A stretch of 64,000 nucleotides of DNA from Phycisphaerae bacterium (GTDB lineage Bacteria > Planctomycetota > Phycisphaerae > SM23-33), in assembly GCA_016782885.1 (NCBI GenBank), contig JADHXQ010000003.1, forward strand, positions 18,316 to 82,315. The letters are read 5' to 3'. The position numbers and the translations under genes are program-made. Below are positions 7,425 through 60,342 of this stretch, one piece after another. Under the pieces are notes generated by a model. It searched no databases, had not been told where the DNA came from, and saw only the letters and a program-made list of their open reading frames with translations. Position 1 is the stretch's first letter. Every line of letters begins with the position of its first letter.

Positions 7425-7447
7425 CATCCCAAACCAGGAGAGGTCGC

Positions 7448-9058: not shown

Positions 9059-9081
9059 CGCCCAAAGCCAGGAAAGATTGC

Positions 9082-14374: not shown

Positions 14375-14376
14375 GG

Positions 14377-15387: not shown

Positions 15388-15393
15388 CTACTG

Positions 15394-22607: not shown

Positions 22608-22642
22608 ACCACGCCAGAAAAGCCCCACAGGAGCAACAACCG

Positions 22643-31071: not shown

Positions 31072-32100
31072 CTAGGGAGCCCAGAGTCCCGCGGGTACGT
31101 TAACTGTGTACTCGTCGTATTCATACTGCAACTGCTCGCGAGTCATCGACCTGACGCTTCCGTCGACCGTCACGAAATTGGCATGGTCGAAGTGGCGGGT
31201 CCGCAGGAATCCATTTTTGTCCTCGTTGCTGCTACCGAATTCGTCAGTGCGGTATCCCTGCCTGTTCACTTTGGCAACATCTTTGGTATACTCCACGAGC
31301 ATCAACTGCCCGGGGCGGGGAGCAGCGTTGGCGACCGCGTCGCTCATAGCATAAGAAGCTTTCTGGAACCCCACTGTATAGTCATCCCACTTCCTGGTGT
31401 ACCTCGGGCCCGACTGAAAACGCATGACAAAAATATTGGGATCGGGAGCAGGAGTGGCTTCTGCCGATGCACTGGCTCCTTCCAGCCCCGCTTCGACCCG
31501 GTTGCGCCAATCCGCAGACCCGTCGTCAAGGCACAACCAGTGTACGCTGGCGCAACCGTGTGTGGCATCGATGATCATCGACTCAAACGTGGCGACACCA
31601 CCACCGTACGTCACCCGCATCATGGCACATTCACTACCGACCTGGATAAGCGCCTGGCCCTCCTCAGCCGTTATTCCATGGGCGCTGCTGCTGCATCTGA
31701 CCTGTACGTCCTCGAATGAACTGCCCGTTTCCAGAATCTCCTTTATGTTCGAGAAGCGCACGTCGCTACCCTGCTTCTGCACCAGGTAGAGGTCTTCAAG
31801 GTCGGGCAAATTTTCGGGTTCGGCCTCAGAATCAGCATCGGGGTCCGACGGACAGGTCAGGACGCCACCCAAACCGCGATTCATCAGGAACCAACGCCAC
31901 CCCGACGGATAGGGACGCTGACCGGGAGCCGAGTTAATCCCCTGGGCCATCTCCTTGAGATTATTCCTGCAGGCGGTCGCCCGGGTGTGTTCCCGAAAGT
32001 TCTCGAACGTCGGAATCAGCAGCATCACTAACAGCACAAGAACTGCAAGAACAACAAGAAGTTCTACAAGAGTAAAACCGTATCTTCCGAGATTGTTCAT
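31072..32100 (-). CDS. DUF1559 protein with a prepilin-type N-terminal cleavage/methylation motif
   Basis: N-terminus GFTLVELLVVLAVLVLLV. C-terminal H-x9-DG-like motif RHFDHANFVTVDGSVRS. The start is placed at the ATG at 32100 (MNNLGRYGFTL...). Confidence 0.75.
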   Translation of the reverse strand: MNNLGRYGFTLVELLVVLAVLVLLVMLLIPTFENFREHTRATACRNNLKEMAQGINSAPGQRPYPSGWRWFLMNRGLGGVLTCPSDPDADSEAEPENLPDLEDLYLVQKQGSDVRFSNIKEILETGSSFEDVQVRCSSSAHGITAEEGQALIQVGSECAMMRVTYGGGVATFESMIIDATHGCASVHWLCLDDGSADWRNRVEAGLEGASASAEATPAPDPNIFVMRFQSGPRYTRKWDDYTVGFQKASYAMSDAVANAAPRPGQLMLVEYTKDVAKVNRQGYRTDEFGSSNEDKNGFLRTRHFDHANFVTVDGSVRSMTREQLQYEYDEYTVNVPAGLWAP

Positions 32101-32184
32101 GTCTTGCACCAAAACCCTGCCGCACACAACAATGCAACTACCCAACTCTCATAATGATATCAAACTCGACGGAGAACACAATAT

Positions 32185-33650: not shown

Positions 33651-36572
33651 TTACTCGACCGAAGGCATCACCAGCCCGCCTCGGGCCTGTTTTTCGGTCT
33701 CCAGGTATGCGCCGTAGAAGTTCGTGTTGCAGTCGATCCACAGCGTGATGCGGTAAAGCTCTTCGGGGGTGAGTTTCAGGTCGTGGTGCCCTTTGGGGCC
33801 GGTCAGGTGCGCCAGCAGCCTGGAGGCCTTGGCGCCGATCTTGCCCGGAACCGAACGAGAGTTACCGTTCTTGAAGAGCGCTCCGTTTCCGCCCGACTTG
33901 CCCCATCCGTATTTGTGGAGCGTCTCGAACGCCTTGGACCAACCGCCTCGCCCGAACTGCTTGCCGGAAAGGTTGGGAGCCTTTTTCTTCGCATTCTTCA
34001 CGTGGCATGGGAGGCACTTCTTGTCGATCACGGGCTGGACAAGGCGAGGGAACGTCAGCGGGAACGAACCTTCGACGTCAGGCTTGATCTTCGACGGAGG
34101 CCGCTTCAACGCCTGAGCCACCGTCATCTTTCTCTTCGCGCCGGACATGCGCAGCTTGGGCTCGTGGCAGCCCTGGCAGGCGAGCTGTTCGCTTTCGTGA
34201 ACGTAGGTGTTTGACTTCATCGACTGGATGGCCTGTCCCTGGGCATCGAGGGCCTGGAAGTAGATCGGAACACCGACCGGGGCTTCGAAGTATACGCTTC
34301 CGTCGGACTCGACGGGCACGGTCCCCAGCACACCGCGAGCCAGCGACTGTGCGGCAAGTCCGATCGCCGGTTGATTGGCGTTGTGGGTGGCCTTGGGGAA
34401 CAGTTGCACAATACGCATGGAAGTCACTTTCGCCCCTTCAGGCCACTTGAAATCGCTGTCGTAAATGTTCATCACCGAAATAGTGGCCGGACGCTTGGGC
34501 ATCAGGGCCTTGTCCTCGACCGCCTGGGTAGTCATTGACGGAATGATCCTCGGTTTGGTTCGCGGACGAAGCGGGATCGGGTCGAGGCACGGTACGCTCG
34601 GATCGCGATAGAGTATCTCCCTGTTACCGAAGCTGTCCATCAGGCACAGCGCGTAATGCCTCTGTCCCGGATCGTAGACGCACAGGTAGTAGTCTTCGCT
34701 GAGAGGCCAGGGCTGGCCGTAAACTTCACCGCCGTTGTTCCTGCCTCTGCCCAGGGCAATACCGGGGATCTTCTCGGATTCAGTGAGTTGCACGTCGGGC
34801 GTGATTCGTTTGAGCTGGCTCATGGCGTTGTCGTCCGGGATCTGGTGGTCGATGAGCACCATCGATCCGTAGTTCTGCCCGTGGTGCGGCGCCGAGACGC
34901 CGATGTAACGGTGCGATCCGGGGATGGCGCGGTTCGCCAACTCCATCCACGGGCGCATTTCGCGCCTGATGGGATAGTTTCCGTGGTAGCTTCTGGCGTC
35001 GCGCCCGTCAGGATACGTCACCCATATATGGTGGGCGATGTCGCTGTCGCGGTCCACATAGTCCCATCGCGAATAGACGATCATCCCGTTGTTGTCGACG
35101 CTGGGATGCCACTCGTTGGTCTCGTGATAGCTGATGGGGATAATGTCGCTCCCGTCGTCCCTCATCGTGTGGAGCGTGTAGGTCGGCACGGGGCGCCCGT
35201 GACATCGCCCGAACCCGCCGCGGCGTTCGGAAATAAACACTATCCTCCCGCTCGGCAGGAAGCACGGGTCGAAATCGTTGGTCTTCCCGTCGGTCAGTTG
35301 CGTCAGGTTGACCGGCTTGCCGGGTGCTATGTTGGCTTTGAATATGTGATACGTGCTCTGCTCGGACCACTTGTACTTCGTGTTGAGAGCCTCGGTCCAC
35401 GCGAACAGGATGGTCTTTGCGTCGTAGCTCAACTCGAGCGACATGTGCGAACCTTCGGCCAGGGTCTTGCCCTTGAGGCGCCCGTTCCGGATCTTCTCTC
35501 CCTTCAGAAGGTCGCGAGCGACAGGCTTGTCGCTGAAGGCGTTTTCAAGGACGTAGATGCTCCCGCCCTTCCTGGCGTGAAAACCGAAGTACTGGTCGCA
35601 CATGTGCCCGTGCGTCTTGTGGTGCGTGGCGAAAATGATCTTGTCGAAATTGACCAGGGGATTCGAAAACGCGATCTGTCTGCGGACCTTGCAGATCTCG
35701 GCGAACAGTTTCTTGCGTGCGTCCGCGTCGTCAACCGGAACCTGGGCGGCCTGCGTTTTGAATCCCGCCAACTGCGCAGAGTGTTTCGACAGGTCCGGGG
35801 CGTCTTTCATCTTCTTGATATCTTCGAGAAGCGCCGCAGTTCTCCTCAGGACCACGTCTACCGGGTCGCGGTCTTCCATAAACAGGAGAGCAGGCTTGCG
35901 GAACACTTCCGCCGCCAGGCGGTCGTAATGATCTCCGCCGGCTTTGCGAACCCTGAGACGACCGGCGATCAGACCGAATTCATCGTCCAGGGAACCGCCC
36001 GGCGCACGCGAGTGCGATCGGGAGCGGGAAGCGGATTTGCGGGCCTTGGAGAGAGTCGGAAGCTTCGTTTTGCCCGCCTCGATCTTACCGGCGACCACAA
36101 CCGCTCCCCACTTGCCCGCCGAGCCGATAGCAAACTTCTGACCGTTCGTAAAATCACACTGGAAAACCGTCCAGGAGTTGCTTCCATTGGCGTCGCCGCC
36201 GGTCATCTTACCGGCCTCTTTCCACTCACCGGGCGCCTTGAGACTGGCCGGGGTCAGACCGTCGGTCAGGCAGACGTACATTCGCCCGCCGACCTTGACG
36301 GAACCCGAAACGCTCACGGACTCCTTGTGCGGGTGCGAGATGTAATTGAGACCCTGGAGACATTTGGGGACTTTCGTGAAAGCGTAATCGCGATTGGAGT
36401 TGACCAGCGCCCGTTCACCCATCTTTCCGGCGGCCAGTTTCTTGTTGCCCTGCACGGTGATTTCAGCGTGCGAGCAGGCGACTTCGGCCTGCACAAACAG
36501 CAACGGGGCAAGCCCCAGCAGTACGGCCGATATGACGATCAGTTTCCACTGGTTAATCCTGAGATAACTCAT
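33651..36572 (-). CDS. family member 4: N-terminal beta-sandwich (like member 1) plus the beta-propeller/di-CxxCH core
   Basis: The start is placed at the ATG at 36572, which has an AGGAGA ribosome-binding site and a signal peptide MSYLRINQWKLIVISAVLLGLAPLLFVQA. CQGCHEPK and KCLPCHVKNAKKKAPNLSG are present. It ends 8 bp before the sulfatase gene on the same strand. Confidence 0.7.
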   Translation of the reverse strand: MSYLRINQWKLIVISAVLLGLAPLLFVQAEVACSHAEITVQGNKKLAAGKMGERALVNSNRDYAFTKVPKCLQGLNYISHPHKESVSVSGSVKVGGRMYVCLTDGLTPASLKAPGEWKEAGKMTGGDANGSNSWTVFQCDFTNGQKFAIGSAGKWGAVVVAGKIEAGKTKLPTLSKARKSASRSRSHSRAPGGSLDDEFGLIAGRLRVRKAGGDHYDRLAAEVFRKPALLFMEDRDPVDVVLRRTAALLEDIKKMKDAPDLSKHSAQLAGFKTQAAQVPVDDADARKKLFAEICKVRRQIAFSNPLVNFDKIIFATHHKTHGHMCDQYFGFHARKGGSIYVLENAFSDKPVARDLLKGEKIRNGRLKGKTLAEGSHMSLELSYDAKTILFAWTEALNTKYKWSEQSTYHIFKANIAPGKPVNLTQLTDGKTNDFDPCFLPSGRIVFISERRGGFGRCHGRPVPTYTLHTMRDDGSDIIPISYHETNEWHPSVDNNGMIVYSRWDYVDRDSDIAHHIWVTYPDGRDARSYHGNYPIRREMRPWMELANRAIPGSHRYIGVSAPHHGQNYGSMVLIDHQIPDDNAMSQLKRITPDVQLTESEKIPGIALGRGRNNGGEVYGQPWPLSEDYYLCVYDPGQRHYALCLMDSFGNREILYRDPSVPCLDPIPLRPRTKPRIIPSMTTQAVEDKALMPKRPATISVMNIYDSDFKWPEGAKVTSMRIVQLFPKATHNANQPAIGLAAQSLARGVLGTVPVESDGSVYFEAPVGVPIYFQALDAQGQAIQSMKSNTYVHESEQLACQGCHEPKLRMSGAKRKMTVAQALKRPPSKIKPDVEGSFPLTFPRLVQPVIDKKCLPCHVKNAKKKAPNLSGKQFGRGGWSKAFETLHKYGWGKSGGNGALFKNGNSRSVPGKIGAKASRLLAHLTGPKGHHDLKLTPEELYRITLWIDCNTNFYGAYLETEKQARGGLVMPSVE

Positions 36573-36808
36573 GCATGACTCTCCTGGTAGGTTCGGTTCG
36601 CATAATAACAAGCGTATTATACTCCTATCATAACGTTTATTGAAACCTATTCCTTGCCTGTTACTGTAATATCGCCCGTTCTGGGAATACAGAATAGGGA
36701 ATACGGAGTCTTGCGAAACGTTACACTATGCGTATGATGCACGGACTGTCGAAAGACGAATAAACAACCGTAGCCCATTCGGACTGCACTGCACAAGGAG
36801 ACTCACCC

Positions 36809-37892: not shown

Positions 37893-39389
37893 ATGATTCG
37901 CAGAATACGCCTGTCCGTGATGTTCCTTATTCTCACTGCCGCTTCGATGAATGTCTGTCTCAGCGCCGATAAGACCGCGGATGGATGGCCCGGATGGCGA
38001 GGGGCTAATCGTGACGGCAAATCAAGCGACTCCGGGCTGCTGAAAAGCTGGCCCGAAGACGGGCCCGGGCGGCTCTGGTCGCTGTCGGGCATAGGCACCG
38101 GTTACTCCAGCGTGTCGGCAGGCGGCGGGATGATCTATACCGCCGGGCACAAGGGCGGGCAGTTGTATCTGACGGCGGTCGGTATGGACGGTAAGGTCAA
38201 GTGGAGCAAGGGTGTAACGTCCGCCACCGGTAAGGGGCCCAAAGGGGCTCGCGCCACACCCACCTACGATGGCGGTAATTTGTACATGGAGTCGGGCGAC
38301 GGCGTCGTCGGGTGCTACGACGCAAAGACCGGCAGGCAGAAATGGACGCATGAATTCAAGGAGTTCGGCGGGCGCACGCCGGGATGGGCGTTCTCCGAAT
38401 CGGTGCTGATCGTCGGTAATCTGGCGATAGTCAGCCCCGGTGGCACGAACTTCATGGTCGCGTTCAACAAAACCACCGGCGCGGTGGTTTGGAAGTCGGG
38501 GCAGTACGGTTCGGCGCACTATTGTTCGCCGATCTACGTGGTCTACCTCGACGTCCCGATGATCATCAACGGAGGCCGCAACGGACTGATCGGCGTCAGC
38601 GCAAAGACCGGAAAGATTCTCTGGACGCAGGATTTCGCCACGGGCAACACCGCCAACTGCCCCACACCGGCGTTCTCGGACGGATATGTGTTCTGGTCGG
38701 TCGGTTACGGTAAGGGTGCAATCTGCGTGAAACTGTCGGTCTCGGGTACTCGCGTGTCAGCCGCCACCGCATGGAAAACCCGCGACATGGTCTGTCACCA
38801 CGGCGGATACGTTATCCTTGACGGATATATTTACGGTAATCACAGCGGAGGATGGACCTGCCTGGACCTCAAGACCGGACGCAAGCAATGGTACGAGCGA
38901 GGTGTGGGCAAAGGTTCGCTATGCTACGCCGACGGTATGCTGTATACATTCGGTGAAAAGGGCGGAAAAGCCGGTCTGGCCGCGGTATCGCCAAAGGGCT
39001 TCGAGCTTACGGGCACGGTCTCAGTCAGAGGAAGCGGACCAAGCTGGGCTCATCCGGTGGTCACCGGCGGAAGGCTCTACCTGCGATACGACGACAACCT
39101 CTACTGCTTCGATGTAAAGGACCCGGCGAAATTTGTCGCAAAACTCCCCGTCGCCATCAAAACGCTGACAACGAAAGACCCAATTGTCAGAACCAAACCC
39201 AAGCCCCCAGCCGCCACCGACGCCAATACAAAAGCTGCAAGGCAACTCAAACTGGCCGAAGCATATCTCATCGCCGGTCTGAAAGCCAAAGCCGCAGACA
39301 TACTGAAGAAACTCGTCGCCGATTTCCCGAACACCAAAGCCGCCAAGGCGGCAACAAAGAAACTCCAGGAACTCACCGGCGGAAAATAA
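37893..39389 (+). CDS. PQQ-like repeat beta-propeller protein (BamB-family-like), secreted
   Basis: Signal peptide followed by a WPGWRGANRDGKS motif, then repeated propeller-blade motifs. Confidence 0.65.
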   Translation: MIRRIRLSVMFLILTAASMNVCLSADKTADGWPGWRGANRDGKSSDSGLLKSWPEDGPGRLWSLSGIGTGYSSVSAGGGMIYTAGHKGGQLYLTAVGMDGKVKWSKGVTSATGKGPKGARATPTYDGGNLYMESGDGVVGCYDAKTGRQKWTHEFKEFGGRTPGWAFSESVLIVGNLAIVSPGGTNFMVAFNKTTGAVVWKSGQYGSAHYCSPIYVVYLDVPMIINGGRNGLIGVSAKTGKILWTQDFATGNTANCPTPAFSDGYVFWSVGYGKGAICVKLSVSGTRVSAATAWKTRDMVCHHGGYVILDGYIYGNHSGGWTCLDLKTGRKQWYERGVGKGSLCYADGMLYTFGEKGGKAGLAAVSPKGFELTGTVSVRGSGPSWAHPVVTGGRLYLRYDDNLYCFDVKDPAKFVAKLPVAIKTLTTKDPIVRTKPKPPAATDANTKAARQLKLAEAYLIAGLKAKAADILKKLVADFPNTKAAKAATKKLQELTGGK

Positions 39390-40402: not shown

Positions 40403-41407
40403 TCACGGCCGCCATGCTTTGGGATGCAAACGCGGGCTGATTTCCAGTGGTGTGGCGGTCTTTACCGATCCGTCAGACAGCAGGTAGTTGACCTTGTCGA
40501 AGTGCCGGGCGCTCTGCAGCAGCAGTCCCTCTGACTCCAGCGGAATGTCGACGTCGACCATCGACTCCTGGTAGTCCACCAGCACTATGCAACCGCCGCC
40601 CGTTGAATATTGGAACGCGTAGGTGTTGATTCCGTAATTGGTCAACCTCTCGCCCCAGTTTGCCAGGGTGAACGACTGTCCGCGAGCGTCCTGCATCCTT
40701 CCGTTTCCGGTAAGAGAGGGCTCACCGTTATACCATATCTGGTTCATGTTGGGGCACGTGTTGATACGATCGGGCCAACCGGGACCATGATTGGGTCCCC
40801 ATGCAGGCACGCACCCGACCGTGTCTTCTCTCAGATCCTTGAAGATATATATCCGACCCGAATCGTAAATGCGTCCACTGCCGTCAGAGTCAACCCAGCC
40901 ATTGAAGTTCATCAGCGCGTACTGCCCGTTGCTGTTCGTATCGTCCTGCATCATGTACTCGGTGTAAGGCCCTTGCGAGTTGCGCCCACGCCTGGATTTG
41001 TAGCAGTTGCCATCTCCTATCGTGTCCAGCGGGTAATGCCCGTTCGGGCTGACGTATTCGACAGTCACCAACGACCCTGATACGGAAGACTGCTTGACCT
41101 CATCCTCGGGACATTGGAACAACTCAAGCTCCGTCACAACGTTGTTGGGAACGCTCGGCCACATCAGGCCCGTTGGATATAAACCGGCCGAATCCTTAGC
41201 CCCGGTGGAAAGGACACCCTCGCCGGATGTCGCGGTATCGCTGGCCAGAACGAAGCCTTGCCAGAGGCGATTGAGATTATTGCGACACTGCGTGGCGCGG
41301 TATATGGACATCACGGGGGTGAACGAGGGAATCAGCAGTACCGCCAGGAGTGCGATCAGCACGACCACCACAAGCAATTCGATCAATGTAAATGCGCCGC
41401 GTCTCAT
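40403..41407 (-). CDS. DUF1559 protein with a prepilin-type N-terminal cleavage/methylation motif
   Basis: N-terminus MRRGAFTLIELLVVVVLIALLAVLLIPSF. C-terminal HFDKVNYLLSDGSVKT, the H-x9-DG motif. Confidence 0.8.
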   Translation of the reverse strand: MRRGAFTLIELLVVVVLIALLAVLLIPSFTPVMSIYRATQCRNNLNRLWQGFVLASDTATSGEGVLSTGAKDSAGLYPTGLMWPSVPNNVVTELELFQCPEDEVKQSSVSGSLVTVEYVSPNGHYPLDTIGDGNCYKSRRGRNSQGPYTEYMMQDDTNSNGQYALMNFNGWVDSDGSGRIYDSGRIYIFKDLREDTVGCVPAWGPNHGPGWPDRINTCPNMNQIWYNGEPSLTGNGRMQDARGQSFTLANWGERLTNYGINTYAFQYSTGGGCIVLVDYQESMVDVDIPLESEGLLLQSARHFDKVNYLLSDGSVKTATPLEISPRLHPKAWRP

Positions 41408-44734: not shown

Positions 44735-44755
44735 GTAAACACCAGACACGTCAAC

Positions 44756-44828
44756 CACGCCCGACAGGATTCGAACCTGTAACCCTCGGTTCCGAAGACC
44801 GATGCGCTATCCATTGCGCCACGGGCGC
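44756..44828 (-). tRNA. tRNA-Arg (anticodon UCG)
   Basis: The reverse complement folds as a cloverleaf. The acceptor stem is GCGCCCG paired with CGGGCGU. The D-arm is GCGCAATGGATAGCGC. The anticodon stem-loop is TCGGT-CTTCGGA-ACCGA. The T-arm is ACAGGTTCGAATCCTGT. The discriminator is G. CCA is not encoded. Confidence 0.85.
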
Positions 44829-44891
44829 GTGGGCAACATTATCACGACGAGTCATCCTACCGTCACCGGACCGTTTTGCAAGCGTTTTGCG

Positions 44892-47800
44892 TTAGTGAGG
44901 TTTCGCCACGCCGTCGGAGGTATTGATTATCCGCTGTCCGTCGGGCCCGAAGGTCACTGACGGGAGGATCTTCCCATTGGCGTCCTTCGGCAGGCGGGAT
45001 TCCGTGCTCGGGAATTCGTCCTGGCGGTATGCGCGGTTGACTATCGGCGCGGTGGCCATCCGCGGGCGGTAAGGCGACTGGGCGTACACGTCCGTGATCG
45101 TCACGTCAGACGGCGGGTAGTTCGATCGCGCGAACATCGGGTCTTTCGGATCGGGATCGGCCATCGCGCGGAGTTCCTGCTCGCCGCGATACGGGCACAG
45201 CAGGTCCACCCACATGATCAGCTTCAGCGCGCTGAGCGAATCGACCTTGACCTTGTTGTGCTTACCGCTCATCGCATTGGCGACCAGTTTGGACTTGTAC
45301 GAAAGCGTCGTCATCGGAGCGATGGTTTTGTATGTCTCAGGCCGCCACGGCAGGGGTTGGGCCAGGATCGTACCTGCCGCCCCGCCGCTGCAATCCCTGA
45401 CGAAACTGCCCCCCCGCCGCTTCTTACCGAGCACCAGCGTCACGTACGGTTCGGGGAATACGCCCATGTCTTTGCTCGCCCGGAGTGTCATATCGAGCTT
45501 TTCGCGTCCCTTGCCCTTGCCCTGGTGACATTTTCCGCAATTCTTGTCGAGTATCGGCTGGATGTCGCGCTCGTATCCGAAGCTGTAGCCCGCGCCCCAG
45601 GGATACGCAGTGAGCCTGGATGGGGCGCCCTTCATCGCCGGGCCCGAACGGGCGGTCGGGGCGAGATCCTGGTCTTCATGGCAGCCGACACAACCCCTGA
45701 CCTCACCGGGCATGACATTGGTGAACGACCGCATGGTCTGCAGCGTGCGATGGTGCTCGTCGAGCAGTTGAAAATGCAGCGACCGGCACGGAGGGGCCTC
45801 GAAATAGACCGACCCGTCTTTCTTGATCGGCACGGTTCCCAGAACGTGCTTGACCCCGTCATTCACCGCCAGCGACACCACCGGTCCGACGTGCAGGTGC
45901 GGCTGGGCCCGGGGATGGTCGACGTCCTGAAGCTTCTTGCCCAGCGTGGCGGTGTTCCAGTCGAGCTGGATTACCCGGAGGTATTTGGCCTTGTCTTTCA
46001 GTATCTTCGGCGCGCCCTGGTAGACGTCGGCGCAGAAGAACACGCCGGGCCTGATCTCGGCGCGGTCCTTCTGGGCGCCCGCCCAGGCGACGCGGTCGGG
46101 AATCACCGGCGGGACTTTGCGAGAGCGGATGGGCAGACCGTAGAGGGCATGAAACGCACTTTCGTAGATCAATTCGCGATTCCCGTAGACGTCCATCAGG
46201 AAGAGCTTGAATTTGCTCGACCGCCCGCTCGCGCGTGCCGAGACCAGAAACACTTCCTCGCTGAGCGGGTAAGGCGACTTGTAACCTCGGTAGGCGCCCG
46301 ATGTGTGGTATTTGGCGGTCTCGGGGCGTTCGGCCGGCCCGTTACCCACCTCGCACCACGGGACGTCCCAGGTGACCTTGGTCAGCCCGTCGGGATAGTT
46401 GCGCCCCTTCTTTGGATCGACGATCCCGATGCTGCCCCAGTAGACGTTGTGGTGTCCCTGCCCGGAGAACATCGCGCGCCCCGAGCCTGGTATCACACGG
46501 GCCTCGACGAGCATGTCCGGCCAGTAGCTCTGATTACCCCAGAACGCGTTTGTGCCCGTACCGTCGGGGTTGACCGTCCACAAGCTCTGGATGCGCATCA
46601 GTTCCTTGTCGGTGTATTCCCAGCGAGTGTAGAGAATCTGCCCGTTTGGCATGAGAGCGGGGGTGTATTCCGGCTCGTTTCCGCCGGAGATCAGGTAGAT
46701 ATTCTTCCCGTCGGCGTCGCAGCGGGCGACTACCGTGCTCGGATGCCCCACAGTGCAGCGGGCGTGGCTGGCGCCGCGGTTGGATACGAACACGATGTGC
46801 CCCGAGGGCATGTAGATAGGATCGAGGTCGTCGTAGCTGCCCGAAGTCAGTTGCCTGGGGGCGGTGGTCGAAGCGTCCAGCGATGTCTCGTACAGGTGGA
46901 ATGTCCGATCGCTCTTCGGGCGGAAGCAGAACAGCACTCTCTTACCGTCGAACGACAGGTCGGGGCGCCAGTACCAGCCCGCCGGGAGCTTGTCGGTGAG
47001 TTTGCGGAGCTTGCCCGCGGGGCTCAGACCGTCGAGCACCAGCAGGCGGACGCAGTTCAACTGGGCCTGCGGATAGACGCGATGCATCGATTCATGCGGG
47101 TACCGCTCGGGAACGTCGACGAACAGCATGCTCGAGAAGTCCACCAGCGGGTCGGCGAACATGATCTTACGCTTTGCCTGGCGAACGGCGAAATAGAGTT
47201 CTTCGCAGACCTTCGTATCCACCTTTGCGGGCAGACTGTTGAGTTTCTTCTCCAGTGCGTCGAGCGTCGCGAGGTCGGCGGTCAGTTTCGGAGGCTTGGC
47301 GGTTTCGGCGAGCCTTGCGGCGATATCTCTGGCCCATACGATCTCCTGGATCGCTCGTTGGGCCGGCGGCTTGCCTTCGGCCTGGAACAACCATTCGGCG
47401 TGGAGTTGGGCTTTGGCCTCTTCGGCGGTCAGGCTGCGGGTCTCGGGTTCAACCGGTCCGGTTCTCGGGGCAGGCGGTAGCGAGGGGGCTTTTGCGAGCG
47501 GTTTCTGGCGTCGAATCTGCTCGGAGATATACACATCCTTGCCGCCAATCATTGCGATCCGGGCGTCGGCCCAATCCGCGTGGTCGCCGGTGAATCCCTT
47601 GATCGACACGTCGGTTATCAGTTCGAGCTTTCGGGCCTTGGACAGGTCGACCGAGACGGCGAGGGGCTCATCGCCGGGCTTGAGTATCTTCGATCGATAC
47701 CGCTCCCTGCCGTCGGTCCTGACGATGAAAACAACCGACCCGCCGGCGGCGCGGGTGGGCCCGTTGAGGTCGGCGCCTACCTGGCATTTAAACAATTTGC

Positions 47801-48029
47801 AGCCCTTGCCCAATTCGATGACGGTCAGGCTGTTGGCGTGCGTGCCCAGCCCGCGTTTAAACGTTTTCGATCCGATCCGCATCGGTTGGGACATGAAGCT
47901 CTTGTCCAGTTGGAGAGTCCGGTGGTCCTGGCGGTGTGCGACAACCTTGAACGGCGCGGGGTCCGCTGCATCGGCAGCGATGCTCGCGACAAGGAGCAGA
48001 CCAAGACAAATGTATCGCAGCATGTCCAT
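44892..48029 (-). CDS. family member 5: NPCBM-like N-terminal domain plus the beta-propeller/di-CxxCH core
   Basis: Signal peptide MDMLRYICLGLLLVASIAADA. NPCBM hallmarks GLGTHANS...GSVVFIV...GDHADWADARI. Core motifs CVGCHEDQ and NCGKCHQGKGKGREKLDMT. Confidence 0.75.
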   Translation of the reverse strand: MDMLRYICLGLLLVASIAADAADPAPFKVVAHRQDHRTLQLDKSFMSQPMRIGSKTFKRGLGTHANSLTVIELGKGCKLFKCQVGADLNGPTRAAGGSVVFIVRTDGRERYRSKILKPGDEPLAVSVDLSKARKLELITDVSIKGFTGDHADWADARIAMIGGKDVYISEQIRRQKPLAKAPSLPPAPRTGPVEPETRSLTAEEAKAQLHAEWLFQAEGKPPAQRAIQEIVWARDIAARLAETAKPPKLTADLATLDALEKKLNSLPAKVDTKVCEELYFAVRQAKRKIMFADPLVDFSSMLFVDVPERYPHESMHRVYPQAQLNCVRLLVLDGLSPAGKLRKLTDKLPAGWYWRPDLSFDGKRVLFCFRPKSDRTFHLYETSLDASTTAPRQLTSGSYDDLDPIYMPSGHIVFVSNRGASHARCTVGHPSTVVARCDADGKNIYLISGGNEPEYTPALMPNGQILYTRWEYTDKELMRIQSLWTVNPDGTGTNAFWGNQSYWPDMLVEARVIPGSGRAMFSGQGHHNVYWGSIGIVDPKKGRNYPDGLTKVTWDVPWCEVGNGPAERPETAKYHTSGAYRGYKSPYPLSEEVFLVSARASGRSSKFKLFLMDVYGNRELIYESAFHALYGLPIRSRKVPPVIPDRVAWAGAQKDRAEIRPGVFFCADVYQGAPKILKDKAKYLRVIQLDWNTATLGKKLQDVDHPRAQPHLHVGPVVSLAVNDGVKHVLGTVPIKKDGSVYFEAPPCRSLHFQLLDEHHRTLQTMRSFTNVMPGEVRGCVGCHEDQDLAPTARSGPAMKGAPSRLTAYPWGAGYSFGYERDIQPILDKNCGKCHQGKGKGREKLDMTLRASKDMGVFPEPYVTLVLGKKRRGGSFVRDCSGGAAGTILAQPLPWRPETYKTIAPMTTLSYKSKLVANAMSGKHNKVKVDSLSALKLIMWVDLLCPYRGEQELRAMADPDPKDPMFARSNYPPSDVTITDVYAQSPYRPRMATAPIVNRAYRQDEFPSTESRLPKDANGKILPSVTFGPDGQRIINTSDGVAKPH

Positions 48030-48266
48030 TCTCCTCTTTCCAACCGGTTCGCTATAGTATCATACCATAGCATAATCGGCCCGGTTCAACAATTCGGATA
48101 ATCAATTCAACAGCATCGAACCGGTGCTGCGATGAGTTGTGGTAATTGGCGATGACATAGGGCATGATATTGACAGCGGCGGCGAACATTCTCGGCACAG
48201 AAAGGGAATCGGCATGAACCACAAGTTCGGACATGACCTGATACGGCGCTACGAGAGAAAACACAT

Positions 48267-49298
48267 GTGAGACGCATAATGAAAAAATCAGTATTGCCCG
48301 CGATCGCGATGTCGTGTCTGATCGGTGCGAGTTTCTGCGCCGATCGACCGGCTTACAGCGTCACCGAAACCGACAACGATATCCGCATCGACACGCCCGG
48401 TCTCCATGCCGCCGTCCGAAAGAAGGGATACGTCTCCGGCGTGGCGGCAGGATCGCTGATCGATAAGAAAACCGGCTTCGGCGATCCGGGCTACGGACTG
48501 GACATCGCCGACTGGATCATGGAACCCGGAAGCGACAAGGCCTACCGCGACCGCCTGGATAAGGAACTGATCTACAATTACGGTAATGCCTATCACGGGC
48601 GGCGGGCGAAGCGGTCCATCGAAGGCCCGCAGATATGCACCAAGGCGCGCGAGCTGAAGCCCGAGATCATTCGCGGAAAGGATTTCGTGGCGATCCGCCA
48701 GAAGTATCGCTATCGCACATCCGCTCCGGGCAAGAACGCCGGTTCGACGTGGGCGCAACTGCTGGTCTTCCCCGCGGGCAAGCGGTACTTCCTGTCGATG
48801 GACCGGATAGACTCCGTCAACGATTCGCCCGCGATGTTCCTGCGAATCGACATGCCGGGGCACGTCAAGCACAAGAACGGCGACACGTTTGCCAACATTT
48901 ACCTTAGCTATCACGGGACGATTGGCGCCTCTGAGTTCGCCAAAAACTTCGCACCCGACGAGAAGTTCAACTACCGTCGCGACAGCGTTAAGGAAGTCCC
49001 AAAGCGGTTCATCCGCGCGATACAGCTTCGCGACGCCAAGACGGGCAAGAAAGGCCCGTGGCTGGCGGGTATGACGCTCGACCCGTCGGTAGTCCACGAA
49101 GCGTGGTGCCACCAGCGCGGGTACATCTGCATGATCCTGGAGTTCGGCGGGCGGCCGATCAAGGCTGGGCAATCGTTCAGCGCAGCGCACATCGTGGGCT
49201 ACTTCGATTCGATCGAAGAGATGAACAAGGTCTACGACCTCCACAAAGGCCACACCACCCTGACCGCCAGCGACAAAGGCTGGAAGCTAGCCAGGTAA
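48267..49298 (+). CDS. secreted hypothetical protein
   Basis: Signal peptide MKKSVLPAIAMSCLIGASFCA. No recognisable motif. Confidence 0.5.
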   Translation: MRRIMKKSVLPAIAMSCLIGASFCADRPAYSVTETDNDIRIDTPGLHAAVRKKGYVSGVAAGSLIDKKTGFGDPGYGLDIADWIMEPGSDKAYRDRLDKELIYNYGNAYHGRRAKRSIEGPQICTKARELKPEIIRGKDFVAIRQKYRYRTSAPGKNAGSTWAQLLVFPAGKRYFLSMDRIDSVNDSPAMFLRIDMPGHVKHKNGDTFANIYLSYHGTIGASEFAKNFAPDEKFNYRRDSVKEVPKRFIRAIQLRDAKTGKKGPWLAGMTLDPSVVHEAWCHQRGYICMILEFGGRPIKAGQSFSAAHIVGYFDSIEEMNKVYDLHKGHTTLTASDKGWKLAR

Positions 49299-55747: not shown

Positions 55748-58700
55748 ATGAATCGCCGATTGACGCTTATGCTGCTTGCGTTTTCACTCATCGTGTCCTT
55801 TATCGCCGCCGCCGGCGCCGCGGACCCCGCCTGGTACGCAAAAAAGAGCACCTGGCGCGAAACACTGAAGACTTCGCTATACAACAAAACCAAGGGTATC
55901 GCGGCGGAAAAGGCTCGCCCCGTCGCCAGACCGTCCAAAGGCTTCAAACCTTTCGTGACGAAGGCGCTCAAGGGCGGAATGGCGCCGCTGAAAATCTCCG
56001 TACCGATCACCGGCGAGAAGGACCTGATCCTCGTGGCGGCCGACGGCGGCGACGGGATCGGTTGCGATCACTCGACATGGGCCGACGCGAAGCTGATCGG
56101 CGCGGCGGGCAAGGTCACATGGCTCGATACGATCAGACCGAAGGCGGTCAGTGTCGGATACGGTAATCTCCAAATCAAATCCAACGAAAAACGCCGGCCC
56201 GCGATCATCGGAAACCAGAAGTTTCCCCGCTACATCTGGGCTCACGCGGTCAGCACGCTTCACTACGAAATCGGTGGAAAATACGTACGGTTCGAGGCGA
56301 GCGTCGGCGTGGACCGGCGAGAACATCGCAACGCGGGCAGCGTCTCCTTCATCGTAACCAACGACCGCAAATCCATACCCAGGGGCGCCAAATCATCTTC
56401 CATGGCGCTGACCAGTCCGCTCTGGGGCGCACTGCTGCGGGACTTCCCCGAAAGTCAGGGGCTCATGGTCCTCAACGATTGGCTCAGGCAGGACAGCCTC
56501 GGGATCGAAGACGAAGCGGGCAAGTTCAAGGAACCCGCGGCAGCCGCACTGAAAGCGGCGGCCGATACGCTGGCGTACGTAAACAAGTCGGGCCCGCAGA
56601 CCAAACTCGCCGCAGAACTTGCGTCCCTGACCAGGAAGCACACAGCCGCAACCGATGACCAGTGGCGCGACATCTACATGGTGACCAAACAACTCCGGCG
56701 CCGCATTATCCTTTCGCATCCGGCGCTCGACTTCGAAAGAATCCTCATCAACCGCAATCCGCCCACGCTGTACTCTCACAATGGCGACCAGCATCTAGGG
56801 CGTCACAGCCGCGTCGGAAAAGGACTGGCGATCCTGACCGGCTGGAAGACCGACAACCTCAAAGCCACGCCCATGCTGAAGGCGGGCAAGCTGCCCGACG
56901 GCGCCGTTCGCAACCCCGACCTCCACTACGACGCCGAGAAGGTCGCCTTCGCCTTCTGCGACCACACGCGCCAGGGCCAGAAGCGATACTTCCTCTACGA
57001 AGCCGCCATCGACGGCTCGTGGGTGCGCCAATTGACGGGCACGAAACGCGACAAGTTCAACACGTGGGACAATCGCGCCACGGTGATCATCGAGGACAAC
57101 GACCCGTGCTACCTTCCCGATGACAATCTCGTCTTCATCACCACGCGCTGCCAGTCGTTCGGGCGCTGCCACGGCGGGCGCTACAACCCCGCATGGACCC
57201 TTCACCGCTGCGACAAGAACGGCGACAACATCAAGCAGTTGTCGTTCGGCAATGAAAACGAGTACGAACCGTCAGTGCTCAATGACGGGCGGATCGTCTT
57301 CACGCGATGGGAATACACCAACCGCCACGAGATGTTCTTCCACATGCTCTGGGCCTGCCGCCCCGACGGAACGAACGTAACGCACTTCTTCGGAAACGAC
57401 ATGCTCCACCCGATGATGATGGTCGAAGCGACCGCCATTCCCGGAACGCATCGCGTGATGACCACCGCCCAGGGACACCACAGCTACAACACCGGAACGA
57501 CCATCGTTCTCGACACCAACATCGGCGAAAACACCGAAAAGGCGATCACCCACCTGACGCCCGAGACGCCGTATTCCGAATCGCCGGGCGGCGGGTGGCC
57601 CAAGCCGCATTACTCTCACCCCCACCCGCTGACCGAGGACCTGTTCCTGGCCTCGAGGGCAAACCACAACGTGCATCCGCAGGGCAGGACGCCCCCGCCG
57701 GCCGACCGGGCGATATACCTGGTCGACCCGGCAGGCGGGCGCGAGCTGATCTACGAAGACCCGGACGTCGCGTCGTTTTCGCCGATCCCCATCCGCAAAC
57801 GCAAGCGCCCGCCGGTCATGCCGACAATGGTCCGACCCGACGCGCCGGACTACGGAACGGTATTCCTCCAGAACGCCTATCTCACCCGAAAGGAAAACGA
57901 TCCCAAAGGCATCATCAAGCCGGGCATGATCAAGGCTATCCGCGTCATCGCCATCGGCGTCCAACCACGGGCCGGACGTTCCGCATTACATATGCGCGTT
58001 CACGTTGAAATCCCCAGGAAAGTTATCGGAACCGTTCCGGTAGACGCAACCGGTTCGGCGTACTTCAAAGTACCGGCGAGAACGTCCCTGCAGGTCCAGA
58101 CGCTCGACGAAAACGGTATGGCCATCCTCACCGAAAAAAGCCTCTTCTACCTCCAGCCCGGAGAGAACAGGAGCTGCGTCGGATGCCACGAACCCGAAGG
58201 GTCCAGCCCGATCGTAAGCGCGATGGCCAAGCTCCGGCGACTCAGGCCAGTGGACCTCAAACCGGCCGCTGGTCCTGCTTACGAAGGCGGATTGAGCTTC
58301 ATGCGAACCGTCCAACCGGTGCTCGACCGCTACTGCATCAAGTGCCACGGTCTGGGCGAAGGCAAGGACCCCAAGAGCGAGAAGATCAAGCTGATCCACG
58401 ACGGGCAACTGACCTGGCCGCAATCGTACAAGGAACTGTTCGCACGCGGAGACCACCGCGTCGGCGACAAGGGATACATGCACGGGAACAAGAACCACCA
58501 GCCCGAAGACAGGAACATCAGCAAACCGCGCCGATTCTTCGCCTTCAGCAACAAGGTCGCACACATGCTCGTGAAGAATCACGGCAAGTGCAATATGGAC
58601 AGAGACAGCTACATGCGGATCATCGAGTGGATGGACGTCAACGCGCAGTGCTACGGCGACCTGTTCCCCTACAAACTCGAAGAACGCAGAATCGACGCCA

Positions 58701-59053
58701 AGGCCATGACCGCACTGCGGGCATACGTCAAGGAACTCTTCGGCGCCAAGATTGCCGCCCAGCCCGACCGCGCACTGATCAATACAGTCCAGATCGACGA
58801 ATCTCGCATCCTTATGGCGCCCCTGGCGACCCAGACCGGCGGATGGGGCCAGATCCCCGGATACGCCTCGAAAGACGATCCGAAGTACAAGAAGATGGCC
58901 GATCTCGTCGACAAGTGCATCGTAAGGAATCGTAACGAGAACACGCGAGGATGGCAGCCCACACTCGACGCCGGCGGTGGAGAGAAATGGGTGATGGAAG
59001 ATCGGGCGAAACTCATCAGCGGCCTGAAGGGCGCGACGCCCAAGTCGAAATAG
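55748..59053 (+). CDS. family member 6: permuted/partial NPCBM-like N-terminal region plus the beta-propeller/di-CxxCH core
   Basis: Signal peptide. GDGIGCDHSTWADAKL (NPCBM C-half motif) lies upstream of IWAHAVS...GSVSFIV (NPCBM N-half motifs). Core motifs CVGCHEPE and YCIKCHGLGEGKDPKSEKIKL. Confidence 0.75.
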   Translation: MNRRLTLMLLAFSLIVSFIAAAGAADPAWYAKKSTWRETLKTSLYNKTKGIAAEKARPVARPSKGFKPFVTKALKGGMAPLKISVPITGEKDLILVAADGGDGIGCDHSTWADAKLIGAAGKVTWLDTIRPKAVSVGYGNLQIKSNEKRRPAIIGNQKFPRYIWAHAVSTLHYEIGGKYVRFEASVGVDRREHRNAGSVSFIVTNDRKSIPRGAKSSSMALTSPLWGALLRDFPESQGLMVLNDWLRQDSLGIEDEAGKFKEPAAAALKAAADTLAYVNKSGPQTKLAAELASLTRKHTAATDDQWRDIYMVTKQLRRRIILSHPALDFERILINRNPPTLYSHNGDQHLGRHSRVGKGLAILTGWKTDNLKATPMLKAGKLPDGAVRNPDLHYDAEKVAFAFCDHTRQGQKRYFLYEAAIDGSWVRQLTGTKRDKFNTWDNRATVIIEDNDPCYLPDDNLVFITTRCQSFGRCHGGRYNPAWTLHRCDKNGDNIKQLSFGNENEYEPSVLNDGRIVFTRWEYTNRHEMFFHMLWACRPDGTNVTHFFGNDMLHPMMMVEATAIPGTHRVMTTAQGHHSYNTGTTIVLDTNIGENTEKAITHLTPETPYSESPGGGWPKPHYSHPHPLTEDLFLASRANHNVHPQGRTPPPADRAIYLVDPAGGRELIYEDPDVASFSPIPIRKRKRPPVMPTMVRPDAPDYGTVFLQNAYLTRKENDPKGIIKPGMIKAIRVIAIGVQPRAGRSALHMRVHVEIPRKVIGTVPVDATGSAYFKVPARTSLQVQTLDENGMAILTEKSLFYLQPGENRSCVGCHEPEGSSPIVSAMAKLRRLRPVDLKPAAGPAYEGGLSFMRTVQPVLDRYCIKCHGLGEGKDPKSEKIKLIHDGQLTWPQSYKELFARGDHRVGDKGYMHGNKNHQPEDRNISKPRRFFAFSNKVAHMLVKNHGKCNMDRDSYMRIIEWMDVNAQCYGDLFPYKLEERRIDAKAMTALRAYVKELFGAKIAAQPDRALINTVQIDESRILMAPLATQTGGWGQIPGYASKDDPKYKKMADLVDKCIVRNRNENTRGWQPTLDAGGGEKWVMEDRAKLISGLKGATPKSK

Positions 59054-59103: not shown

Positions 59104-60342
59104 TGGGGTCAGAGCTTCGTTAGTCTTTAAGGTGATAGAAATACAATAGAACTCTTTGTATTAAATGCGGATAGCGGATGCAAAAGATCTTTTAAGGACT
59201 AACGAAGCTCTGACCCCAAGTTTTTCGATTGACGTTGAGATTGGGATTTGTTAGTTTTTCGGGTATGGCTAGACCTCTGAGAATACAGTTTCCTGGCGCC
59301 TTGTATCATGTCATGTCGCGGGGCAATGAGAAGCAACCGATCGTTCTTGACGACATCGACCGGGCCAAACGCGTCGATTGGTTGCGGCGGACGGTGGAGA
59401 TTTACGGGTGGCGGCTTCATGCGTTCGCGCTGATGACGAATCACGATCACCTGTTCGTCGAGACGCCCGAACCGAATCTGTCTGCCGGGATGCAGTATCT
59501 CGGCGGCAGCTACACGAGCTATTTCAATTGGCGCTACAAACGCAGCGGGCATCTGTTTCAAGGCCGCTTCAAGGCCCATCTAGTTCAGACCGAGGGTTAC
59601 TTCCGCGAAGTCAGCCGCTACATCCATCTGAACCCCGTGCGTGCCGGACTCGTCGCCCGCCCGCAAGATTACAACTGGAGCAGCTATCCCGGCTACGCCC
59701 AATCGCGGCGGGCCGTGGCGTGGGTCTGCTACGATCGCGTGTTGTCTGAGTTCGGATGCGATCCGGGCGACGCCAGGCGGGCCTATAACCGCTTCGTTCG
59801 CCACGGAATAAACACCCCGCCGCCTTCGCCGCTAGCCAAACCGGTCAGCGGATTGCTTGTCGGATCCGAAGCGTTTGTGGCGAAAATGCGTGGGATGCTC
59901 CAGAATCGCCCCGACGACGCCTCCCTACCCCAACTGCGCGAAATGCAGTTGCAGTCGCGTCCGGAATTGCAGCGGATAGTCGCCGCAGTCGCCGAGAAAT
60001 TCGGCAGCGACCCAGCCGACTGGCGTGCGGACAAACGAGTCAACGACGCCAGCCGCGCACTAGCGGCGTACCTCGCCAGACGACGCTTCGGATATTCGGG
60101 CAATCAGGTGGCCGAAGCGTTGGGATATCGAAGCGGCAGTTCGGTGTCGAGCGCTGTCGCCCGAATCGATTCAGCAGGTCCAGCACTCAGGAAAACCGCC
60201 GAAAAGATCGAACGAGAGCTTATGGGGTCAGAGCTTGGTTAGTCCTTAAGAAGCTGGCGGCTCGATACAAGTCCTTTGTGTGTAGGCCAATAGAGGATAC
60301 AGACAGACCCTTGAGGACTAACCAAGCTCTGACCCCATAAGC
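59104..60342 (+). mobile_element. IS200/IS605-like (or REP-associated) element consisting of a Y1 HUH transposase gene bracketed by two related long hairpin elements
   Basis: Upstream hairpin: 22-bp perfect stem 59104..59125 / 59197..59218 with a ~71-nt loop. Downstream hairpin: 28-bp perfect stem 60217..60245 / 60315..60342 with a ~69-nt loop. The two stems are nearly identical in sequence and lie in the same orientation. Confidence 0.65.
59265..60242 (+). CDS. tnpA: IS200-like Y1 (HUH) transposase with a C-terminal DnaA-C-like helix-turn-helix domain
   Basis: HVMSRGN, the HuH motif NHDHLFVE and the catalytic-Tyr region YIHLNPVRAGL. The C-terminal ALAAYLARRRFGYSGNQVAEALGYRSGSSVSSAVARI resembles the DnaA C-terminal HTH. 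The start is placed at the ATG at 59265. Confidence 0.75.
   Translation: MARPLRIQFPGALYHVMSRGNEKQPIVLDDIDRAKRVDWLRRTVEIYGWRLHAFALMTNHDHLFVETPEPNLSAGMQYLGGSYTSYFNWRYKRSGHLFQGRFKAHLVQTEGYFREVSRYIHLNPVRAGLVARPQDYNWSSYPGYAQSRRAVAWVCYDRVLSEFGCDPGDARRAYNRFVRHGINTPPPSPLAKPVSGLLVGSEAFVAKMRGMLQNRPDDASLPQLREMQLQSRPELQRIVAAVAEKFGSDPADWRADKRVNDASRALAAYLARRRFGYSGNQVAEALGYRSGSSVSSAVARIDSAGPALRKTAEKIERELMGSELG

Follow-up and report, generated by a model that had tools for sequence, protein, structure and literature searches.

NPCBM/NEW2 domains usually accompany the catalytic module of a glycoside hydrolase or glycopeptidase, a context that is typical rather than strictly defining. Member 5, encoded by a Phycisphaerae bacterium within the window (the whole 64-kb stretch of DNA that was analysed), raises the question of what such a module does at the N-terminus of a protein with a propeller and two haem c motifs, and whether the protein belongs to the nitrogen cycle or to carbohydrate metabolism.

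Gene, export signal and neighbourhood

The Member 5 gene occupies 44892..48029 on the minus strand in the list of open reading frames and encodes 1045 aa when read from its first ATG, the numbering followed here. A Shine-Dalgarno sequence, GAGGAG, read directly at 48031..48036 (minus strand), lies only 1 nt from the first ATG (48029) but 7 nt from the second (48023). Because of this spacing, and because public assemblies call the gene as a 1043-aa product with NPCBM and HZS_alpha, translation likely starts at the second ATG and yields 1043 aa. Approximately the first 22 residues (47964..48029, minus strand) form a signal peptide of the Sec type without a lipobox, with a putative cleavage site between MDMLRYICLGLLLVASIAADA and ADP; residues 1-21 have a pLDDT below 50 in the AF2 model. 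Member 5 is thus probably a Sec-exported protein, either secreted or periplasmic. A 740-aa antisense frame (45258..47480, plus strand) and other overlapping frames were set aside as shadow ORFs in a GC-rich gene; the frame on the minus strand is the one with about 1700 homologues (1681, the best 89% identical).

Downstream of Member 5, ARAGORN identified a tRNA-Arg(TCG) gene at 44755..44829 on the same, minus strand. The sequence-only reading had placed such a gene 64 bp beyond the stop codon; the tRNA-Arg is present there, although the gap is 62 nt. A functional link between the two genes was considered and rejected: the gap holds a promoter-like site of its own (44866..44838), and outside the closest relatives (locus L003 and, 8 kb away, L001) the two genes are no longer neighbours. 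The tRNA is an incidental neighbour outside the system. It stands among other housekeeping neighbours, namely ribD, an MFS transporter gene, murJ and nadA, while searches against Pfam, NCBIfam and PDB sequences returned nothing for a conserved divergent neighbour of 343 aa (48267..49298). None of the neighbours of Member 5 was found to contain a domain of the CCP/MauG or HzsBC kind.

The NPCBM/CBM51 module

Residues 27-167 (47529..47951, minus strand) form an NPCBM/NEW2 domain, that is, a CBM51 beta-sandwich. A canonical NPCBM module at this end had been proposed from the sequence, and a Pfam search bears it out far above chance: PF08305 matches residues 33-158 (47556..47933) with E=4.4e-29; its 101.7 bits exceed the gathering score of 23.9, and the match spans profile positions 14-136 of 137 (123/137). 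The three segments cited in that proposal are present as FKRGLGTHANS (residues 57-67), GSVVFIV (97-103) and GDHADWADARI (148-158), and include the hallmark motifs GLGTH (60-64) and DHADWADA (149-156). The predicted structure of the N-terminal region has a pLDDT of about 90, and its NPCBM part superposes on four independent CBM51 structures at 1.3-1.7 A. Furthermore, the module is retained in 15 orthologues, in which G60-L61-G62, H64, G148-D149-H150, D152-W153-A154 and A156 are invariant and the motif positions T63, A151 and D155 vary. That the resemblance arose by chance, or is a decayed remnant that does not fold, has a negligible probability, being refuted by the search statistics, the model confidence, the superposition and this conservation. 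When the NPCBM region alone served as query, the matches were limited to ten small proteins that consist of a stand-alone NPCBM and are about 40% identical to it.

Characterised CBM51 members bind galactose, blood-group A/B antigens or GlcNAc. Solved CBM51 modules come from Clostridium perfringens (GH95, GH98 and ZmpB) and Streptococcus pneumoniae (GH98), under PDB entries 2VMG/2VMI, 2VNG, 7JS4/7JRL and 2YGL. The modules of these two organisms, which are gut Firmicutes, are carried by glycoside hydrolases or an M60 glycopeptidase, whereas the partner in Member 5 is a dihaem propeller protein of an environmental Phycisphaerae bacterium, with sugar binding and specificity that are predicted. Neither Pfam nor NCBIfam detects a glycoside hydrolase or peptidase domain in Member 5; the partner of its NPCBM is a core related to HzsA, the alpha subunit of hydrazine synthase. 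Member 5 carries a genuine galactose-type carbohydrate-binding module of the NPCBM/CBM51 class, which would be expected to bind carbohydrate.

The haem propeller core

The proposed junction of the module to a propeller/di-CxxCH core holds as well, in that the remainder of Member 5 contains an HZS_alpha middle domain, a PD40 repeat and two CxxCH motifs. Starting at about residue 193, this core is built from a helical bundle, a six-bladed TolB-like propeller, the HZS_alpha middle domain and both haem motifs (all coordinates below are on the minus strand). The four-helix bundle (residues 202-291, 47157..47426; AF2 secondary structure) lies within the conserved core and has no aligned counterpart in HzsA, as the family profile meets 5c2v_A only from profile position 292. 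It is followed by the beta-propeller of the TolB/PD40 type (residues ~300-660, 46050..47132), in which Cys425 (46755..46757) is invariant family-wide, in all five alignments, and may possibly belong to a haem site. The HZS_alpha middle domain (residues 681-785, 45675..45989) matches PF18582 with E=2.1e-20 and 73.5 bits against a gathering score of 26.6. At its end lies haem c motif 1, CVGCH (residues 780-784, 45678..45692), which is followed by a near-invariant Glu785 and aligns with the alpha-I motif CSGCH of HzsA. Motif 2, CGKCH (residues 831-835, 45525..45539), aligns with the alpha-II motif CAMCH and falls in the C-terminal helical haem domain with its extended tail (residues 797-1045, 44895..45641), as delimited by the AF2 model and conservation. 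This domain also holds the near-invariant His924, which may be the distal ligand of haem 2. In the propeller and middle domain, conservation is strong even among very distant members at H312, R418, C425, R469, W470, Y472, D489, H526, D538, D757 and E776. Judging from its two CxxCH motifs, Member 5 is predicted to be occupied by haem.

Comparison with hydrazine synthase

HzsA of Kuenenia stuttgartiensis (PDB 5C2V chain A) shares with Member 5 the beta-propeller, the HZS_alpha middle domain and the C-terminal haem domain. Foldseek aligns the two with E=7.5e-27 and a target TM of 0.59 over 829 columns, and profile comparison with 5c2v_A gives E=7e-30, with both CxxCH motifs at homologous positions (alpha-I and alpha-II). 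However, the identity is just 15-16%; Member 5 adds the N-terminal helical bundle and the CBM51 module, and it comes from a paralogue-rich family of non-anammox PVC bacteria. In the haem alpha-I site of HzsA, Tyr591 (His587 + 4) is the proximal ligand, while His587 and Cys303 bind Zn (PMC12758564). By contrast, Member 5 reads CVGCHEDQD, a canonical CxxCH-E motif without a Tyr ligand at +4, and none of the six paralogues in the window has a Tyr at +1 to +6; the Tyr ligation and Zn site specific to HzsA are therefore not expected in Member 5. It scores only 36.1 bits against the cut-off of 800 for the NCBIfam hydrazine_alpha equivalog (NF052339), and the window contains neither an hzsB/hzsC (beta-gamma)-like gene nor another protein with at least two CxxCH motifs. 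The low equivalog score, the missing Tyr ligand and the lack of a beta-gamma partner gene in the window rule out Member 5 as a hydrazine synthase.

A broader alternative is a nitrogen-cycle enzyme with HzsA-like chemistry, acting in the turnover or detoxification of hydroxylamine, NO or hydrazine, with the NPCBM serving only to anchor it to an extracellular polymer or the envelope. The whole-core fold and profile homology and the two homologous haem motifs favour this idea, as does the suggestion that hzs-like genes belong to a wider family whose members use other substrates (PMC10732223). It nevertheless appears improbable: the three observations that exclude hydrazine synthase itself also count against it, non-anammox homologues do not conserve key residues of hydrazine synthase (PMC12758564), and a dedicated N-oxide enzyme is hard to square with the presence of six divergent paralogues within 64 kb and of family clusters bearing sugar-binding modules in their thousands.

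Module exchange within a large family

Sequence comparison assigns Member 5 to the PF18582-containing 'HzsA-related protein' family of Planctomycetota, Verrucomicrobiota and Kiritimatiellia. It is 50-89% identical to many proteins from metagenome-assembled genomes, some of them named HzsA-related or HZS_alpha proteins (P0085 and P0116 among the 1681 homologues bear the name 'HzsA-related protein'), and shares with such proteins PF18582 and both haem motifs. Clustered at 50% identity, the core family numbers 5265 clusters when the threshold is E<=1e-3 and 1336 when it is E<=1e-30. Published homologues (PMC12758564, PMC10732223) were chosen for co-location with beta-gamma-like genes and fall into clades I-IV, whereas Member 5 and its paralogues stand alone and carry sugar-binding modules, on which both papers are silent. 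No family member has an experimentally established function (PMC12758564), and none was found in the literature searched.

Between module and core lies a short helix with a Pro-rich linker (residues 168-192, 47454..47528, minus strand), where the pLDDT dips to 56 at residues 181-190. Identity among homologues is 18-88% in the linker versus 70-92% in the core, and the homology of P0018, P0021 and P0030 to Member 5 begins at residues 193-194. Such alignments mark the linker as the breakpoint at which homologues swap N-terminal modules, and the interchangeable modules found on the core family include Laminin_G_3, F5/8C, NPCBM, GH2_N and malectin.

The window holds six divergent paralogues of the core. 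Member 5 is not alone among them in bearing an NPCBM: one is also present in the sixth paralogue, Member 6 (1101 aa, 55748..59053, plus strand), which has the same core. The NPCBM of Member 6 appears to be circularly permuted, with the C-terminal half at residues 65-126 and the N-terminal half at residues 141-206. Foldseek did not place CBM51 among the top 50 matches of the Member 6 model, as expected for a permuted domain with an aligner that depends on sequence order. Member 6 is 100% identical to NCBI MBL7218674.1, a 'NPCBM/NEW2 domain-containing protein [Phycisphaerae bacterium]'.

Some family members sit among sulfatase and glycosidase genes. A sulfatase lies within the flanks of 9 of the 44 GTDB loci, a crude count that, made without a background control, does not amount to evidence of enrichment. 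A GH43 domain in P0050 was considered as a catalytic fusion and rejected, being a faint match only in a gene that adjoins a ribosomal operon. Peptidase_S9/abhydrolase domains occur in one distant representative of the family.

Proposed function

The reading considered most probable, at roughly 55%, is that Member 5 is a glycan-targeted haem redox protein, one of many paralogues in a polysaccharide-degrading repertoire, and not a nitrogen-cycle enzyme. The CBM51 beta-sandwich, tethered to the HzsA-related core by the flexible Pro-rich linker, would fix Member 5 to a glycan or glycoconjugate whose sugars most likely have the galactose configuration. Haem 1, which would sit where propeller and middle domain meet, as it does in HzsA, would then carry out a redox reaction on this glycan, on one of its substituents or on a fragment released from it, and haem 2 would pass electrons to or from periplasmic carriers.

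Several observations run against a glycan role, including the housekeeping surroundings of Member 5, the ribosomal operon next to P0050 and the small share of loci with a flanking sulfatase. The CBM could also serve only as an anchor to the envelope glycans of the cell itself.

A less likely alternative, though one with better prospects than nitrogen chemistry, is a non-enzymatic glycan-binding cytochrome, used at the surface or in the periplasm for electron transfer, or else for glycan capture and adhesion, in which the haems would be conductive or structural and the propeller a binding platform. The conserved polar and aromatic residues of the propeller and middle domain, together with one Cys, look more like an active site. 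Moreover, the homologous haem alpha-I of HzsA is one of its two proposed active-site haems (PMC12607021).

In Foldseek, the propeller of Member 5 also resembles those of S9 peptidases (E around 1e-8 to 1e-7), which, with the Peptidase_S9/abhydrolase domains of the distant representative, would fit an S9/TolB-propeller type of peptidase or hydrolase that acts on glycoproteins and uses the CBM for targeting. This is very improbable: Pfam and NCBIfam find no alpha/beta-hydrolase or other peptidase catalytic domain in Member 5, the S9 likeness is confined to the non-catalytic propeller, and what stays invariant is the pair of haem motifs.

The preferred glycan-targeted redox role would have functional parallels among known enzymes. 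Galactose oxidase (CBM32 with a kelch propeller) follows a like logic, combining a sugar-binding module, a propeller/catalytic domain and a built-in electron-transfer cofactor, and it appears among the Foldseek matches of Member 5 (9g8h, 1gof) at a TM of about 0.16-0.18. Cellobiose dehydrogenase and PQQ pyranose dehydrogenase combine a catalytic domain with a cytochrome and a CBM. The likeness is a functional analogy only, as the catalytic parts are not homologous and the cofactors differ: a Cu-radical, or FAD or PQQ with cytochrome b, versus two c-type haems predicted in Member 5.

Implications

The combination of NPCBM with HZS_alpha is already machine-annotated in public databases, while the present interpretation was not found in the literature searched. 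Published ideas on the numerous non-anammox homologues of hydrazine synthase concern nitrogen chemistry only. The swappable sugar-binding fusions and the occasional placement among sulfatase and glycosidase genes hint at glycans instead and offer a concrete lead for a very large family. Behind a still wider reading stand the thousands of clusters, the many paralogues per genome and the interchangeable CBM51, CBM32, LamG, malectin and GH2_N modules. Tentatively, the stand-alone HzsA-related proteins of PVC bacteria might constitute an unrecognised class of haem-c-dependent, carbohydrate-active redox enzymes, an oxygen-free 'auxiliary activity' of which Member 5 would be the CBM51-targeted form and from which anammox HzsA may have descended. 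The lead towards glycans bears on the degradation of sulfated polysaccharides by Phycisphaerae, Kiritimatiellia and Verrucomicrobiota in anoxic settings, as well as on the evolutionary origin of the key anammox enzyme.

Domain architecture of Member 5

Member 5, listed among the open reading frames (ORFs) of the window as a minus-strand ORF of 1045 amino acids (44892..48029), carries at its N-terminus an NPCBM/NEW2 module (Pfam PF08305), which the sequence-only reading had recognized from three hallmark peptides, FKRGLGTHANS (aa 57-67), GSVVFIV (aa 97-103), and GDHADWADARI (aa 148-158). A search with the Pfam NPCBM profile matches aa 33-158 significantly (E=4.4e-29; 101.7 bits, gathering score 23.9) and spans 123 of 137 profile positions. 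Over the region for which that reading had proposed structure prediction (residues ~30-170), the AlphaFold2 model (76 aligned homologues; mean pLDDT 89.2, pTM 0.83) forms a beta-sandwich at aa 27-167. The module is a bona fide CBM51 fold, and it is fused to a propeller core: the protein also has a single PD40 repeat, the HZS_alpha middle domain (aa 681-785, E=2.1e-20), and a pair of CxxCH motifs, CVGCH (aa 780-784) and CGKCH (aa 831-835). The earlier observation is confirmed and its interpretation supported.

Ahead of the sandwich, the model has a low-confidence signal peptide of predicted Sec type (aa 1-22); behind it, a short helix and a poorly ordered Pro-rich linker (aa 168-200) lead into a bundle of four helices (aa 202-291). 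The beta-propeller (aa ~300-660) comes next, then a beta-rich middle domain that closes with haem motif 1 (aa 662-790), and finally a helical C-terminal domain that contains haem motif 2 and runs out into an extended tail (aa 797-1045). Among Member 5 orthologues, the NPCBM is 54-89% identical with invariant hallmark residues and the linker falls as low as 18%, a sequence pattern consistent with a functional module that is flexibly tethered.

The start codon of Member 5 is ambiguous (48021..48036, minus strand). Translation probably begins at the second ATG at 48023, because the Shine-Dalgarno sequence GAGGAG (48036..48031, minus strand) leaves a 7-nt spacing to it but a spacing of just 1 nt to the first ATG, and because public assemblies call a 1043-aa product from the second ATG; for the latter reason the 1045-aa sequence is absent from the protein collection. 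A tRNA-Arg(TCG) gene (44755..44829, same strand) does lie downstream, although 62 nt rather than the proposed 64 bp after the stop codon. The surroundings are otherwise largely housekeeping in nature (ribD, an MFS transporter, murJ, and nadA), together with a divergent gene for a 343-aa exported protein (48267..49298, plus strand) that has no match in Pfam, NCBIfam, or PDB sequence searches. This protein is 88-91% conserved, adjoining the Member 5 orthologue at one GTDB-genome locus (L004) and lying 4 kb away at another (L001).

Relation to hydrazine synthase

The best whole-model Foldseek match of Member 5 is the hydrazine synthase alpha subunit HzsA (5c2v_A; E=7.5e-27, target TM 0.59, 829 columns), which the family profile also matches (E=7e-30). 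Haem motifs 1 (CVGCH) and 2 (CGKCH) align with haem alpha-I (CSGCH) and haem alpha-II (CAMCH) of HzsA, respectively, and the core is HzsA-like, its two attachment motifs for haem c being conserved. Nevertheless, Member 5 is not a hydrazine synthase. Its score for the NCBIfam hydrazine_alpha equivalog is 36 bits, where the cut-off is 800. In HzsA, the haem alpha-I site is unusual in that the iron is ligated by Tyr591, four residues past the motif His, and zinc is held by His587 and Cys303 (PMC12758564); in Member 5 the residues after motif 1 are EDQD, and a Tyr within six residues is missing from all six window paralogues. A domain scan of the window proteins found no beta-gamma-like composition, and no window protein besides the six paralogues has at least two CxxCH motifs.

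Several propeller and middle-domain residues are invariant (H312, R418, C425, R469, W470, Y472, D489, H526, D538, D757, and E776). Cys425, in the propeller (46755..46757, minus strand), is retained in every family alignment as strictly as the haem motifs, including in representatives ~25% identical, and may serve, by analogy with HzsA Cys303, as a ligand at the haem site or of a metal. The near-invariant His924 lies 89 residues past the motif His, compared with 84 for its HzsA counterpart.

Window paralogues and a permuted NPCBM

Within 64 kb lie six divergent paralogues that share 25-31% identity with Member 5: 17431..20229, 20280..22607, and 22463..26074 (plus strand, in tandem, the last with an N-terminal Laminin_G_3), 33651..36611 (minus), Member 5 (minus), and Member 6 (55748..59053, plus). 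Each carries a signal peptide and exactly two CxxCH motifs, at a spacing of 51-55 residues; none seen in the window bears HEAT repeats. An N-terminal domain of ~200 aa that lacks a Pfam match is common to Members 1 and 4. The ORF at 22463..26074 shares 145 nt with the paralogue before it, and its first ~60 residues are non-conserved; its true start is probably the Met ahead of the signal peptide, at ~22646 (MSKTTIRHITPLVFVV…).

Member 6 contains a circularly permuted NPCBM (aa 59-212), in which BLASTP against Member 5 places the C-terminal half (DHSTWADA) at aa 65-126, ahead of the N-terminal half at aa 141-206. In native order the Pfam match splits into two stretches, whereas a construct with the halves put back in the usual order (aa 127-212 + 59-126) gives a single match, to positions 8-136, at 94.6 bits. 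AlphaFold2 predicts a single confident beta domain at aa 65-210; Foldseek, which depends on sequence order, did not confirm the CBM51 fold on this model. The permutation is kept in dozens of Member 6 orthologues. Member 6, publicly named 'NPCBM/NEW2 domain-containing protein', is 100% identical to MBL7218674.1 from a Phycisphaerae MAG, and public contigs share the gene order of the window. Directly downstream lies a gene for an IS200/Y1-transposase-like domain fused to a DnaA C-terminal helix-turn-helix domain (59229..60242, plus strand), also found in public assemblies.

Family size and module exchange

A word-indexed search returned 1681 homologues of Member 5 (top identity 89%), some named 'HzsA-related protein' by NCBI, and the core (aa 190-1045) retrieved 5265 clusters (50% identity) at E<=1e-3 and 1336 at E<=1e-30. 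The nearest genomes are Phycisphaerae/Phycisphaerales MAGs (84-88% identity); Victivallales, Kiritimatiellia, and Verrucomicrobiota MAGs have cores 64-70% identical and different N-termini. Among the best 120 of the 1681, N-terminal Pfam domains include NPCBM, Laminin_G_3, both together, Bac_rhamnosid_N, GH2_N, and F5/8C. Scanning 86 representatives (76 chosen for N-terminal extensions of at least 90 aa, 10 added by hand) detected Laminin_G_3 (13), F5/8 type C (11), Mala_s_1-like (4), NPCBM (3), DUF7402 (2), HEAT (2), and single cases of GH2_N, malectin, CBM_AftD, Golvesin_C, and S9/alpha-beta hydrolase. Swaps were compared between Member 6 and the homologues P0294/P0296, and between Member 5 and P0018/P0021. 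Member 6, with NPCBM, shares 88% identity from aa 267 to the end with P0294, which carries F5/8C (CBM32); Member 5, also with NPCBM, shares 70% identity from aa 193 with P0018, which carries a rhamnosidase-N-like sandwich. The sugar-binding modules are interchangeable, their exchange being clean and in some cases recent; this is the main comparative result.

Gene neighbourhoods

Other window paralogues adjoin heparinase II/III-like, GH5, sulfatase, and BNR/sialidase-like genes, DUF1080/3-keto-disaccharide-hydrolase domains, PQQ_2 propellers, and an FG-GAP protein. In other genomes, five sulfatases, a GH5, and one more sulfatase form a same-strand run that includes an NPCBM + LamG + HZS_alpha gene; one NPCBM-HZS orthologue comes after sulfatase, GH106, and GH78 genes and before an HZS_alpha + HEAT gene, another lies near GH53 and ThuA, and one homologue adjoins a ribosomal operon. 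Sulfatases flank 9 of 44 loci, a crude count without background control. Given such mixed settings, housekeeping ones included, the neighbourhood evidence for a glycan link is suggestive but anecdotal, and domain fusion is the stronger argument.

Directly after Member 5 orthologues elsewhere, or facing in one case, lies a gene for an HZS_alpha + HEAT-repeat protein of 1240-1330 aa (L045 13241..17239; L046 10617..14615; L048 13203..17159; P0004 locus 13354..17073). At L045, besides sulfatase, GH106, and GH78 genes, there is a gene for a 1021-aa HZS_alpha protein with a formylglycine-generating-enzyme-like (FGE-sulfatase) domain (22485..23159, running off the locus). The window has five PQQ_2/BamB-like propeller paralogues (5847..12214 and 37893..39389, plus strand), three in tandem with near-identical N-termini (…SAEDWPQWGG…) and one fused to a DUF1080 domain; none of the five contains CxxCH, and PQQ_2 genes adjoin HZS_alpha family members in other genomes too. 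Next to the gene pair of the sulfatase and Member 4 are two prepilin-type N-terminal cleavage/methylation proteins (31072..32145 and 40403..41407, minus strand) of a sort typical for PVC bacteria; one of them has an H-X9-DG motif at its C-terminus.

Proposed function

Two papers treat genes resembling hzs beyond anammox bacteria as a broader family without assigned function that does not conserve the key HZS residues (PMC12758564, PMC10732223). Neither mentions carbohydrate-binding modules (CBMs), and the literature searched yielded no link between an HzsA homologue and a glycan; the NPCBM + HZS_alpha architecture, already machine-annotated in databases for the same gene, is uninterpreted there. 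Published precedent exists for a non-glycosidase catalytic domain whose CBMs indicate glycoconjugate substrates. Member 5 is a modular exoprotein in which a CBM has been appended to an uncharacterised dihaem HzsA-like core. The CBM would tie it to a glycan, haem 1 would be the reactive centre at the propeller/middle-domain interface as in HzsA, and haem 2 would pass electrons on, with His924 as candidate distal ligand. We place this reading, a glycan-targeted haem redox protein, slightly above even odds (about 0.55). More speculatively, since ThuA, AP_endonuc_2, and 3-keto-disaccharide-hydrolase-type genes co-occur, such proteins may take part in oxidative glycoside cleavage or serve as electron acceptors for it.
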